A stretch of DNA of 64,000 nt, taken from Candidatus Woesearchaeota archaeon. Its GTDB lineage: Archaea > Nanobdellota > Nanobdellia > Woesearchaeales > JAZDKJ01. The stretch is taken from positions 352,001 through 416,000 of the forward strand of contig JAZDKJ010000006.1 in the NCBI GenBank assembly GCA_043803105.1, written 5' to 3'. The number at the start of each line of letters is the position of its first letter. Position 1 is the stretch's first letter. This document shows, in pieces, positions 18,001 through 21,000 of the stretch. A program made the position numbers.

Positions 18001-21000
18001 TATGGGGCATCAGGTAGCGGTCAATTATCTCGGTTGTTCTTTCGATCCTGATTTCCTTTGCTTGTGTTATGCCTATCCTTTTTGCTATGAAGTCTAATGC
18101 GTCTTCACTCGTCTTTATATCTGCGAAGCTGTATAGGTTCACGACCACCTCATCGAATTGCCTCTCCTTGGATACTGACTTCATTATATCTTCATCGTTC
18201 AGGAGGCCAAGTGATTTTATGACGATTATTAACGGAATTCTCTTAACTCTTGTAAAGGACAAATAGAAGATTCCATCCTTCATCTTTTCCAGTGTATGAG
18301 GTATCTTGTAATACCCATGCTCTGAGAATAGCTTGCCTGTGTATTCCGAAACCCCAATGTTTTGCTTCTCCACCAAAAGTTGGTTTGATGCGAGGTCTTC
18401 GACATCGATTAGTACCTTTTCTGTTCCGTTGATTATGAAATATCCTCCTGGGTCATCAGGGTCTTCACCCTTTTCTATAATCTCGTCCCTTGACATGTTG
18501 TGCAGGTGGCAAAACTTGCTCCTCAGCATGATTGGTATTGAGCCAACCTGGGTTACAAATGATTCTCTCTGCACATCATTGATATGGGCGCTTACCTCGA
18601 TGAAGCATGGGCTTGCATAAGTTATCTTTCTTAGTCTTGCTTCAACAGGGTATATTGCCCTCCTTGAGCCGTCTGCTTCTGTTATCTCCGGCTTTGTGAG
18701 CCATATCTTGTCAAGCCTTATCTTGAACTTGTCGACATTGCTTGGGATTATTGTGGGCTCTATATCTTTGTTTTCTTCTATAATCTTCTGCAGCTCGTGC
18801 TCTATAAAATAATTGTAGGACTCTATGTCTGACTTTATGAGGGAATAGCTTTCAAAATATTTTTGTATCAGCAATTTTGCAGTGTTAACCATTTATCGCA
18901 CATCTGTAATAGTATGATTCTCCTGCAGTGCTGCTCTTTCGCGTTATCTTGACGACATCTCTCGGCTTTAGCTTTAGATCAATTACCGCAGGATCCTTGA
19001 TAAGTAGTTTTGGTAGTTCGTTCTCAGTAATGTGGAAATGCTCGAGCAGCTGTTTTTTTTCAGCCTCGCTAAGTTTTTTATGCTTAGGCACAAGAATGTG
19101 TTTGCTTATGTTGAATGATGGCTTCATTTTAGATTGAATGGGCCGGACGAGATTTTCTTTGTTTTTTTTTCCAAGTTGCATTCGAACTCGCGACCACCTG
19201 ATTGCTTTGCAGCTTAAAAGTCAGGTGCTCTATTGCCCTTATACTCCAGGCTGAGCTACCGGCCCATCGTGATTGAAAAACGCCCTGGTCGGGACTTCCA
19301 ACAACAGACATGCCGTATGACATTTTCAGCTGATTTGAACCCGAGTCGAAGCCTTTTTGCGGTAGCAAACAGTAATTCAACCCTCCCTCTGGTTGAAAAG
19401 CCACCTCGACAGGGCTTCATGATAGGCCAGACTACACTACCAGGGCTTTGACCTAGTTAAGCCTAATTTAAGCTTTCTAGCCACCAAGCAGTCCACATAG
19501 GTCTTCTTAAGCGCATAGAAAGATTGAATTGGCATGGCCCACCTATCTTCACACCTGTTTATAAAGCTTGTGGTTTTTTCCTGACTTATTCAGGTCTGCT
19601 TGAACTTTTGCTTGATTACTTTCAAATGTTCTGCTCGAATTAAAGCGAGAATATCCCCGAGGCCGGAGTCGAACCAGCAACCTTTCGGTAACGGCTGAGT
19701 GTTTTTCACATTCTGCACTGAGTGCAATATCAAAACACTATCCCTACAGCCGAACGCTCTAGCCATTGAGCTACTCGGGGAAGCTTTTTTCCTTAGGAAA
19801 AAACCTTGGAAAATATGTTTTTGCCAAGGCAAAAACGCTGCCTTTAAGGCAGCTAAAGTTGCGAGCTGACTTTTCAGCTCAGCTATTGAGCTACTCAGGG
19901 ATAATTCAATGAATAACAAACAAGGGTCTTTTTATAAACATTTCTTATCTCTGTGTGTGCTTCTTTCTTCGGAACGACTCAGAATTTTGCTATTGCTATT
20001 AGTGTACAATTCTCATTTTTCCAGCCATGACTAAATTGTGCTCAATCTCTAGCTTGTTGAATCTTTTTTCCATCGCTAGGATCTTATCGACTTTTTGCTC
20101 TGTTTGCTCTACACCGTTCTTTATCTTACCTAATTTGTATGCTCCCCCGAGAATCGAAATGCCTCCTCCAAGATATGGTATCATCTCTACCCACACTGGA
20201 GAGCGCACAATTCCAAAAACCTTAAGCAGCGCCCACAGGAGTATTGCCAGTGCTCCTATGACAATCAGGGAATCCCAGAGGTCAAAACTTGCGTTGAAGA
20301 GTTTTTTTAGCTTTTGAATTGTCCTCATGCTGGCAGCAATAATAAAAAGGTCGTTCATAAACTTTTGTCTTCGATAAATCCAGATTGTATGAATGAGCCG
20401 TAAATCTTCCGAAAGTCACAACATCTTATTTCTGCGGTTCGCTCGATGTCCAGTCCTGCTTGCACATGTTGTCGATTGCAGAGTATGCAAAGCTGCCCAG
20501 AGTATAGTCGAGAAGTTTCCATGTCAAATCTCCTGCCAGGGCCTTGTTTGCCTGCTGTTGGGCTTCCCTCTCTGCTATTGCTTTTTGCTCGGCAGGGTCA
20601 TTGTATGCTCCTGCAGTCTTCGCACTCAACACACTGGCGTATACTATTCCATCCGTACCGAGCACTGTTTTTTCCCCACTTAGTGCTATCCTTTCAGACC
20701 TGATTGGCCCACCCTCATCAAATGTGTACTCTGTAACCATGGCCCCTGCTTGTGCAATATAGGTGCTTGATATTGCTCGTGTTGGAGGTGGAAAACTTTG
20801 TGGTGTACACACAGTGGGAGGAAATCCCTGCTTGACATATGCACCGTAAGGATACTCACTGTTAGGTTCTTGGTATTGGTAGTCCTGTTGTGCAAAATAG
20901 ACTTGGGTGAGTGTAGGATCCTGCGCAGCTTGGCTGGCGCTTATGTCTATGATATTTATATCCGGATATATTGTGCTTTTCCAGCAGTTGCAGTTTGTAT

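Follow-up and report, generated by a model that had tools for sequence, protein, structure and literature searches.

Nearly every tRNA gene of a Woesearchaeota archaeon is interrupted, most often within the T-loop

tRNA genes of the window

The window analysed here is a 64-kb stretch of DNA from the genome of a Woesearchaeota archaeon (1.56 Mb, 96.5% complete). Genes for tRNA-Lys(UUU) and tRNA-Asp(GUC) lie at 19139 to 19446, where the initial annotation had placed them, and we recovered them with three and two introns, respectively. The true protein-coding neighbours of this range are rpoH and rpoB. Two open reading frames, 19129-19404 and 19590-19919, have no Pfam match, and a protein-coding reading of the range was rejected. 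The tRNA genes placed in the window, and two located elsewhere in the genome, are listed below.

19265..19139, minus strand: tRNA-Lys(UUU); exons 19265-19246, 19232-19215, 19202-19181 and 19152-19139; introns 19245-19233 (13 nt, D-loop, after G19), 19214-19203 (12 nt, 37/38) and 19180-19153 (28 nt, 59/60); solver model, spliced product called Lys(ttt) by ARAGORN
19446..19281, minus strand: tRNA-Asp(GUC); introns 19406-19355 (52 nt, 37/38) and 19333-19295 (39 nt, 59/60); solver model and ARAGORN
19654..19780, minus strand: tRNA-Tyr(GUA); one canonical intron, 19743-19690 (54 nt); the only tRNA of the window detected by Rfam
41932..42048, plus strand: tRNA-Pro(UGG); introns 41972-41983 (12 nt, 37/38) and 42005-42034 (30 nt, 59/60)
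51674..51875, minus strand: tRNA-Pro(CGG), not solved by the solver and read by eye; three intervening sequences, including a T-loop intron at 51763-51688 (76 nt)
Contig C8, 152631-152778: tRNA-Ala(UGC); three introns; between the end of the SSU and the start of the LSU rRNA gene
Contig C12, 181423-181652: tRNA-Phe of normal type; three introns

Standard detectors miss most of these genes. ARAGORN calls no tRNA in the window. Genome-wide it calls four with introns disallowed and nine, several of them incorrectly, with introns of up to 200 nt allowed (-i0,200). The Rfam model RF00005 yields six matches above its cut-off, one of them in the window (tRNA-Tyr). The earlier counts of four and six are therefore reproduced, but the five reported with introns allowed become nine. 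The same tRNA search gave 5, 12, 9, 26, 42 and 25 in the first six relatives, where the initial annotation had 10 and 25 for the second and fourth and agreed on the rest. Among 20 relatives of the order, 16 have fewer than 30 tRNAs by the Rfam model, and most of these genomes are more than 90% complete. tRNA counts are used to grade metagenome-assembled genomes, and here the genes are present but hidden.

The tRNA set and its intron positions

We used a separate solver that searches for cloverleaves, limits jumps to those allowed by the bulge-helix-bulge (BHB) rule, and scores candidates with a profile trained on the intact tRNAs of relatives. The solved set comprises 30 genes with 30 different anticodons, without duplicates or stop anticodons. 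Twenty-nine of the 30 are interrupted, which is the sense of "nearly every" here, and they hold 56 introns in the solver models, with at most three per gene. The site 59/60 in the T-loop accounts for 22 of the 56 and 37/38 for 17. Among the introns of the first 29 genes, nine lie in the D-loop, and the remaining positions are 24/25, 26/27, 29/30, 31/32 and 53/54. The initial annotation likewise had 30 genes, 29 of them split, but counted 55 introns, 23 of them in the T-loop. Exons are collinear and spread over 100-280 bp. Intact genes include the solved tRNA-Val(GAC) and at least two others with odd T-loops, Thr(CGU) and Ala(CGC).

Removing the introns restores a canonical cloverleaf, as judged by the solver score and by ARAGORN, which called all 30 spliced products tRNA (29 of 29, plus Phe) with the anticodon of the model; 24 of the 30 genes carry no mismatch penalty. 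As null controls, the full pipeline was run on the reversed and the dinucleotide-shuffled genome. The final run gave 28 loci in the real genome and none in either control. With an earlier version of the solver, 24 real loci had profile scores of at least +22 bits, compared with a reversed-genome maximum of +9.7. A T-arm statistic requiring a T-arm profile of at least 18 bits, 5/5 T-stem pairs, a 7/7 acceptor complement and T8 was reached by 33 real loci (25 with an intron 3' of T54), versus one in the reversed and none in the shuffled genome. A simpler seed test (T-arm with intron, 4-bp helix, 7/7 acceptor and T8) proved unspecific, with 33 hits in the real genome, 33 in the reversed and 11-18 in shuffled ones. 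The signal is separated from chance only by the full model.

A first, strict solver found 17 loci and missed genes with long introns, intron-side helices, C33 or outer helices limited by the D-stem. Roughly nine more loci defeated the solver and were read by eye alone; examples are Gly(GCC), Arg(CCU), Cys, Met-i, two Leu, Ala(GGC) and Pro(CGG). Relaxed-run solutions for Met-i and the Leu gene on contig C12 were wrong and were discarded. Intron borders in the D-arm are uncertain for Asn, Glu(UUC), Leu(CAG) and Ser(CGA). tRNA-Asn had been listed as not found; an Asn(GUU) candidate did turn up, but it is weak, with two mismatches. Class II-like GAA loci were considered as the sole tRNA-Phe and ruled out by the normal tRNA-Phe gene on contig C12. 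The reported tRNA-Ala(UGC) with three introns in the 16S-23S spacer is borne out by the solver model and by the positions of the SSU and LSU genes.

Pairing of the T-loop with the intron end

The 3' end of the 59/60 introns reads YGAA-A-R, position n-4 being G in 21 of 21, and is complementary to T54-R57. Over 29 introns, R57 and intron position n-5 form A:T in 11 cases and G:C in nine, are unpaired in nine, and never combine as A:C or G:T, a pattern indicating that position 57 covaries with the intron. In tRNA-Pro(CGG) the T-loop has TCCA in place of TTCR and the intron ends in TGGA, a compensating change.

A BHB was defined as a 4-bp central helix with two flanking 3-nt bulges at the exon-intron borders and at least one outer helix. 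All four central pairs are present in 33 of 53 introns (both outer helices in 9, the exon helix only in 14, the intron helix only in 10), counts that are partly circular because the solver permits only jumps under the BHB rule. The remaining 20 are relaxed, 18 having three of four central pairs with an exon helix and two falling outside these classes. At 59/60, the tRNA-Asp motif is strict and that of tRNA-Lys(UUU) relaxed, and the 29/30 intron of tRNA-Arg(UCU) has the intron-side helix alone. Covariation, folds of shuffled introns and intron-less orthologs are free of this circularity.

In minimum free energy (MFE) folds of T-arm plus intron, the exact motif appeared in 11 of 21 cases, compared with 2.1% of shuffled introns; the isolated MFE structure lacked it in the other 10. 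The Asp fold contains the T-stem, a UUCA:UGGA helix and a 3-nt bulge, and the Pro(UGG) fold the T-stem, a UUCGA:UCGAA helix and a 3-nt bulge. The Pro(CGG) segment 51775..51674 folds into the T-stem, a UCCA:UGGA helix and a 3-nt bulge with a z-score of -3.55, and 0 of 200 shuffles were as good. The Lys(UUU) T-arm fold was not better than its shuffles (z = +0.65). Motif, covariation and folds agree on the central helix between TTCR and the intron 3' end that had been proposed.

Conservation in relatives

We compared the genes with orthologs in five relatives (G001, G002, G003, G014 and G017). Mature sequences are identical at 60-74 of 73-75 positions, and exon identity to a congener reaches 74/74 and 73/75; mature tRNA-Lys(UUU) matches that of G001 at 74/74. 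Homologous introns are identical at only 9/13 to 32/135 positions, and in relatives they vary in length and sequence or are absent. The 37/38 intron of tRNA-Lys is absent in G001, where the anticodon arm is uninterrupted, and its D-loop and T-loop introns are absent in G017. Wherever an intron is missing, the intact ortholog matches the predicted junction. As first reported, the T-loop intron of tRNA-Asp recurs with unrelated sequence: a 59/60 intron was found in all four relatives in which the gene was recovered. Orthologs in the five relatives also support the claim that the trait is common to the lineage.

Processing enzymes

The genome encodes both a splicing endonuclease and an RtcB-type ligase. 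EndA is a single gene of 203 aa with an N-terminal and a catalytic domain (PF01974, 96.8 bits; PF02778, 56.6 bits), the only match to either family in the genome. No paralog was found among 11,865 six-frame open reading frames (phmmer --max), the next match having E = 1.6. Its best solved relatives are the N. equitans alpha subunit (8e-40) and the M. jannaschii alpha4 enzyme (1.5e-35), to which it aligns without insertions. It thus has the make-up of an alpha4-type gene, that is, one gene of about 180-200 aa with both domains and no beta or fused second unit. The Tyr of Y-[DE]-R-G, the His after it and the Lys of R-K-[KR]-L-L, which we take to be the catalytic triad, all align with 1A79.

EndA may be a homotetramer. 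A four-copy model scored 0.68 against 0.00 for the best control, with runs agreeing in at least 75% of contacts and pLDDT of at least 83, a score that may reflect only likeness because a like complex (1A79) is already solved. That mark was attained by 21 of the 30 proteins whose solved form is a pair and by none of the 23 whose solved form is a single chain. The modelled interface involves residues 157-169 and 194-203.

RtcB is present (550 bits), with its reading frame broken at C6:11275-11304 by a 30-nt insert whose sequence looks like a BHB intron. The insert was considered to lie at the intein site of relatives, which is wrong; the intein of G001 is about 35 residues downstream. An RNase Z-like gene adjoins EndA, and RNase P RNA is present.

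Among 20 relatives, 19 have a single EndA match (frames of 82-246 aa), and the count stays at one whatever the number of detectable tRNAs. Relatives with the same EndA type range from 5 to 42 detectable tRNAs, and here a plain single-subunit enzyme stands alongside 29 of 30 split genes. This bears on the idea that EndA type sets the load of odd introns. By the account in PMC3239211, alpha4 EndA needs a strict BHB motif. Many of the introns described here are relaxed, and if they are spliced, this EndA would be broader than that rule.

Interpretation and alternative readings

Near-universal splitting of the tRNA genes is confirmed, and the earlier interpretation, BHB-type introns with 59/60 as the dominant site, is supported by the solver with its null controls, ARAGORN, orthologs, covariation and MFE folds. 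We consider it highly likely that the loci are functional tRNA genes of a DPANN archaeon and that their interruptions are archaeal BHB introns. The gene structures, the motif, covariation, exon conservation and the enzyme genes are direct observations, from which we infer that transcription, cleavage and ligation take place. The pre-tRNA would be transcribed as one piece. The four exon bases that directly precede the 5' splice site would pair with intron positions n-5 to n-2, flanked by two 3-nt bulges, and the single alpha-type EndA, probably as a homotetramer, would cut after the second base of each bulge. RtcB would then ligate the exons, and RNase P and RNase Z would trim the ends. At 59/60, the outer helix would be the T-stem, with T54-R57 paired to YGAA and 58-59-i1 and A-R-N60 as bulges. 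This geometry would equal that of the canonical 37/38 site on the anticodon arm, where a 7-nt loop on a 5-bp stem is cut after its sixth position. Since almost all tRNAs share the T-loop sequence, any of them could host such an intron, which would explain why 59/60 dominates.

A subset of the T-loop "introns" could instead mark side-by-side split genes, in which transcription stops at an oligo-T module after position 59 and the 3' piece (60-73), with a start of its own, is trans-joined through the same BHB. We regard this as unlikely. Runs of five or more T, which can terminate archaeal transcription, are present in 8 of the 23 introns that lie in the T-arm at 59/60 or 53/54 and in none of the 30 others; shuffling predicts 0.7. 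The oligo-T hairpin module begins exactly at the 5' splice site in seven tRNA genes, and reverse-oriented copies abut tRNA 5' ends and orphan 3' fragments. Split tRNA genes are also mentioned for Nanoarchaeum, of the same superphylum, in PMC5829648. However, the T runs lie in the 5' arm of a hairpin and may act differently there; 14 of the 22 introns at 59/60 have no such run; and RNase P RNA is present, with nothing to suggest that tRNA ends are made as in Nanoarchaeum.

A joint reading, which we hold to be doubtful, is that the T-loop introns are mobile BHB-bounded elements that home to the conserved T-loop and enter with a duplicated 3' exon. Oligo-T copies would end transcription inside the "intron", and the 14-nt 3' piece would be made separately and trans-joined. 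If true, such genes would represent an extant transitional stage from intron-bearing genes to split tRNA genes of the Nanoarchaeum type.

It is very improbable that the split genes are decaying pseudogenes of a symbiont that uses its host's tRNAs. DPANN archaea are often host-dependent, and some genes have odd features, such as C33 in Val(GAC) and Ala(UGC) and a weak D-stem in Ile(GAU). Against decay, exons stay conserved over five families in which introns drift, the splice helix shows compensatory changes, the anticodon set is near-complete and non-redundant, and the genome still encodes EndA, RtcB, RNase Z and RNase P RNA.

The idea that a flexible solver, free to place three introns, made random DNA look like tRNA is hardly credible and largely refuted: the simple seeds are as frequent in the reversed genome, where the earlier solver also gave 22 three-intron solutions (two without mismatch), but reversed-genome solutions with at most two introns numbered 0 against 20 good real ones, the profile from other genomes separated real loci from reversed, the final pipeline found nothing in either control, and 30 distinct anticodons, ARAGORN's agreement and conserved orthologs all point the other way.

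The origin and spread of tRNA introns become testable in this lineage, which has many genomes, through three features: the likeness of 59/60 to the canonical site, the intron families common to several genes and several genomes, and the orphan copies of 3' exons in the vicinity.

Comparison with known systems

The mechanism is the known archaeal one. In Nanoarchaeum equitans, of the same GTDB phylum, EndA and a ligase unite the parts of split tRNAs at a BHB; there distant halves are trans-joined, whereas the exons here are collinear.

The Thermoproteales (Crenarchaeota) have as many as three BHB introns in a gene, placed at non-canonical sites. According to PMC3239211, up to 87% of their tRNA genes are disrupted, and a preprint (10.64898/2026.10.13.758758) describes related introns recurring across different tRNA genes. 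In contrast to the single alpha gene here, their EndA is an (alpha-beta)2 heterotetramer with a lineage-specific loop; a further difference is that 22 of the 56 introns here share one site, 59/60. ARMAN-2 (Candidatus Micrarchaeum), also DPANN, has introns at 59/60 (Cys) and at 53/54 and 59/60 (Pro GGG), and cleavage at 59/60 was demonstrated in vitro, according to PMC3239211. Its EndA is a three-unit epsilon2 enzyme, unlike the 203-aa alpha-type protein described above.

In some Asgard archaea, a bioRxiv preprint (October 2026) describes about 2.2 intervening sequences per gene, comparable to 56 introns in 30 genes here, at T-arm and D-arm sites, many missed by standard software and with an intron load unexplained by EndA type. 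These archaea belong to another superphylum and, by that account, have almost no intron families common across tRNA types, whereas there are at least two here. Kaneta et al. 2018 (PMC5829648) described a DPANN alpha4 EndA with an "L3" loop, covered one Woesearchaeota genome, and took gaps in predicted tRNA sets as a sign that disrupted genes had escaped detection. The passages covered here give no gene models, intron positions or T-loop pattern, though figure 7 and the supplements may hold more, including on Woesearchaeota RBG_13_36_6. A literature search on the trait in Woesearchaeota or DPANN returned only this paper and general reviews. Introns at 59/60 are already known from ARMAN-2; what is new is the extent, the dominance of the T-loop, the lineage and the sharing of intron families.

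Nearly all tRNA genes are predicted to be interrupted

The genome under study, G000 (Candidatus Woesearchaeota archaeon, a member of the DPANN), comprises 13 contigs and 1.56 Mb at 42-45% G+C and is rated 96.5% complete; the window covers G000:C6:352001-416000. ARAGORN found no tRNA genes in the window. It found four in G000, or nine with introns allowed, and at least three of these nine are wrong (a poor 'Pro' and two Leu genes taken for Phe and Val). The Rfam tRNA model gave six matches over its cut-off, one of them in the window. The low detector counts in the initial annotation are thereby borne out, except that it had five for intron-allowed ARAGORN. 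Across 20 relatives, most of them more than 90% complete, the Rfam model gave 5 to 42 matches per genome, with fewer than 30 in 16.

Three free introns offer about as many degrees of freedom as a tRNA holds information, which creates a risk of overfitting. A simple seed test was dropped as unspecific (33 loci in the real and 33 in the reversed genome). Therefore, we wrote a search restricted by the bulge-helix-bulge (BHB) splice motif, together with a position profile. The search starts at TTCRA seeds, permits intron jumps only where a relaxed BHB is possible (a central helix of p-5..p-2 with n-5..n-2 of the intron, plus an outer or inner helix) and requires all four stems. Results are then scored by the profile, trained on 75 intact tRNAs from six relatives and none from G000. 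An earlier solver version gave 24 loci at or above +22 bits, with the next lower score at -20; in the reversed genome the top score was +9.7, and all 22 solutions had three introns. With the final version, G000 yielded 28 loci and its reversed and dinucleotide-shuffled sequences yielded none; targeted runs added Leu(GAG) and Phe(GAA). A coarse count, independent of any solution for the middle of the gene (T-arm profile of at least 18 bits, perfect T-stem, perfect upstream 7-bp acceptor complement, T8), found 33 real, 1 reversed and 0 shuffled loci; in 25 of these real loci an intron lies 3' of T54.

The solved set comprises 30 genes with 30 different anticodons. In these models 29 genes are interrupted, by 56 introns in total: 22 at 59/60 (between those tRNA positions) and 17 at 37/38. 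Nine D-loop introns occur among the first 29 genes, and the remaining sites are 24/25, 26/27, 29/30, 31/32 and 53/54. Three introns occur in each of six genes, among them tRNA-Ala(UGC), which is flanked by the end of the SSU and the start of the LSU as previously described. The earlier claim that nearly every tRNA gene is split thus stands, with its 30 genes, 29 of them interrupted; its 55 introns and 23 at 59/60 become 56 and 22. When the spliced products were run through ARAGORN, an independent check with no scoring element in common with the solver, 29 of 29 plus Phe were called as tRNAs with unchanged anticodons. About nine further unsolved genes are visible through homology and by eye (Gly GCC, Arg CCU, Cys, initiator Met, two Leu, Ala GGC, Pro CGG, Thr GGU), at least six of them with T-loop introns. 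Just three genes appear uninterrupted: Val(GAC), Thr(CGU) and Ala(CGC).

The anchor (window 19139..19446, minus strand) was correctly named as tRNA-Asp(GUC) and tRNA-Lys(UUU).

tRNA genes and neighbors in the window
19265..19139, minus: tRNA-Lys(UUU), introns of 13 nt (D-loop, after G19), 12 nt (37/38) and 28 nt (59/60)
19446..19281, minus: tRNA-Asp(GUC), introns of 52 nt (37/38) and 39 nt (59/60)
19780..19654, minus: tRNA-Tyr(GUA), one canonical intron, directly upstream of the anchor
Directly downstream of the anchor: rpoH, rpoB
41932-42048: tRNA-Pro(UGG), two introns
51875..51674: tRNA-Pro(CGG), three intervening sequences, read by eye

Several unusual RNA genes were also observed. Val(GAC) and Ala(UGC) have C in place of the near-universal U33 (G000:C6:533517-533589, C8:152631-152778), and a tRNA-Ile with anticodon UAU (C6:245346-245467) exists in addition to Ile(GAU). 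In the Thr tRNAs and Ala(CGC) (C12:123849-123921, C6:303770-303841, C6:525422-525500), the D-loop AGTAGC(T)A has no GG, the T-loop, similar to TGCRAYT, has no TTC, and the usual contact bases between the two loops are missing; the same oddity occurs in Thr tRNAs of relatives (loci L009-L068). A tRNA-like family with a Ser-like body (long variable arm, discriminator G) has the anticodon loop CTGAARA (anticodon GAA), and its members share their 3' end and flank (window 51310-51463, minus; C6:304225-304323; C6:~299350-299520; C8:~41345-41440). Removing one T-loop intron from the copy at C6:304225-304323 gives a perfect class II cloverleaf, which ARAGORN calls Phe(gaa); a normal tRNA-Phe exists besides. 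The 16S rRNA gene may contain an insertion, because its match spans 1598 nt against 1478 model positions (C8:150105-151702; locus L001, 1501-3098).

Exons are kept and introns diverge in relatives

The Tyr-Asp-Lys cluster is syntenic in the same-genus relative G001 and in G002, G003, G014 and G017, from four other families. Ortholog models came from the solver used on G000. Between G000 and G001, the mature tRNAs are identical at 74/74 (Lys) and 73/75 (Asp) positions. Identity in the introns is 9/13 for the Lys D-loop, 11/28 for Lys 59/60 (28 vs 14 nt, the lengths first reported) and 32/135 for Asp 59/60 (39 vs 135 nt). These comparisons indicate that the predicted exons are kept and the predicted introns have diverged. 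The Lys 37/38 intron is absent from G001, the Lys D-loop and T-loop introns from G017, and the Asp 37/38 intron from G002 and G017. Every intron-less ortholog site agrees with the splice junction predicted in G000. As had been proposed, all four relatives in which Asp was recovered carry an Asp 59/60 intron, and the trait is common to the lineage.

Covariation and folding support a BHB at 59/60

In the 59/60 motif the outer helix is formed by the T-stem, the central helix by pairing of T54-R57 with YGAA (n-5..n-2), and the 3' bulge by A-R-N60. This matches canonical intron geometry: a 5-bp stem and 7-nt loop, cut after loop position 6. Intron ends have G at n-4 in 21/21, A at n-3 in 18/21 and A at n-2 in 18/21. 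Position 57 and n-5 covary: in 29 partly non-independent introns from six genomes, the counts were A:T 11, G:C 9, A:C 0, G:T 0 and unpaired 9. Pro(CGG) has the unusual T-loop TCCA and the intron 3' end TGGA. In ViennaRNA minimum free energy folds, the T-stem, exact central helix and free 3-nt bulge appeared together for 11 of the 21 stretches of T-arm plus intron; with the introns shuffled, the rate was 2.1%. Asp, Pro(UGG) and Pro(CGG) fold in this way; the Lys(UUU) T-arm fold did not show the motif (z +0.65). The helix postulated between TTCR and the intron end is consistent with both the covariation and the folds. Among 53 introns, 33 form all four central pairs, 18 form three plus the exon-side helix, and two fall outside both classes.

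Candidate processing enzymes

G000 encodes RtcB, RNase P RNA and one EndA of 203 aa (N-terminal and catalytic domains, adjoining an RNase Z-like gene); no second EndA copy was found in G000. Close relatives of this EndA are Candidatus Woesearchaeota and Nanoarchaeota proteins (65-86% identity). Its alignment with the homotetrameric M. jannaschii enzyme contains no insertions and runs from residue 43 through the C-terminus; the best alignment is with N. equitans alpha, in which six additional residues precede the catalytic His. A single EndA match also occurs in 19/20 relatives, regardless of detectable tRNA number. A four-copy model scored 0.68 (best control 0.00), with contacts agreeing at least 75% between runs and pLDDT of at least 83. 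This mark was passed by 21/30 pair-solved and 0/23 single-chain-solved proteins. The score is compatible with self-association of EndA and may reflect likeness only, because a like complex has already been solved.

The RtcB frame itself is interrupted by an insert of 30 nt that contains a TAG stop in frame (G000:C6:11275-11304; locus L069, 2721-2750, minus). The insert fits the BHB rule (AAGG:CCTT pairing, 3-nt bulges, 10-bp inner hairpin), and the predicted cuts would restore the frame and the motif DAHEGYGFPIGG, which is continuous in G001; the G017 version is DAHQGYGFSIGG. RtcB is free of internal stop codons in all 20 relatives. The insert is probably a BHB intron in the ligase's own mRNA; in the portions of the literature covered, cbf5 was the only protein-coding case found. 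RtcB of G001 (L082, G001:C198) carries a large intein-like in-frame insert immediately before the Cys of GYDINCG, with comparable long frames in G012:C5 and G016:C10 and none at that site in G000.

Introns shared between genes

Six T-arm introns of different genes (Gln CUG, Glu UUC, Glu CUC, Leu UAA and Pro GGG at 59/60; Ser UGA at 53/54) are 88-95% identical across 20-36 nt. Their common hairpin module is CAGC, a T run, a 2-4 nt loop, an A run and then CCTGGGAAAA. A loose pattern matches 27 places in G000, among them window 19782-19813 and 51688-51763; the module may serve as a promoter, a terminator or a mobile element. Eight begin directly after a T-loop motif, seven of these in tRNA genes; others, in reverse orientation, adjoin tRNA 5' ends (Tyr, Gly GCC) or orphan 3' fragments. 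Introns of Ile(GAU) and Gly(CCC) in G000 (38/46) form a second family, which also includes the G003 Lys(UUU) 59/60 intron (40/46 vs shuffle mean 27). Downstream of Ile(GAU), Thr(GGU) and Ala(CGC), at distances of 20-150 nt, are orphan second copies of a tRNA 3' exon or 3' portion (regions G000:C10:3423-3643, C6:525410-525640, C6:303840-304060). For Ile(GAU), 46-nt and 147-nt 'intron' alternatives yield an identical product. The shared families, module and orphan 3' exons fit introns that are mobile between T-loops, perhaps arriving together with a duplicated 3' end.

Oligo-T can end transcription in archaea. If T runs did so here, some genes would act as side-by-side split genes; runs of T5 or longer are confined to T-arm introns (8/23 vs 0/30 other introns). 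We consider this split-gene reading improbable and favor spliced introns.

Discussion

Null controls, ARAGORN calls on spliced products, orthologs, covariation, folds and enzymes together support the predicted tRNA-gene interruption and the interpretation in the initial annotation. No description of this pattern was found in the abstracts and text passages searched. Non-canonical and multiple BHB introns are standard for Thermoproteales.

In published work, ARMAN-2 has introns at 59/60 and 53/54, with in vitro cleavage at 59/60, and tRNA gene disruption of up to 87% is given for archaea with (alpha-beta)2 enzymes and of 56% for ARMAN-2 (PMC3239211). Kaneta et al. 2018 included one Woesearchaeota genome, associated DPANN alpha4 enzymes with greater tRNA disruption and described predicted tRNA sets as incomplete (PMC5829648). 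According to a 2026 preprint, some Asgard lineages have ~2.2 intervening sequences per gene (10.64898/2026.10.13.758758). The proposed splicing mechanism is of an already known kind. New are the lineage, the predicted interruption of almost all tRNA genes, the preponderance of T-loop introns, the combination with a plain alpha-type enzyme and the intron families shared between genes.
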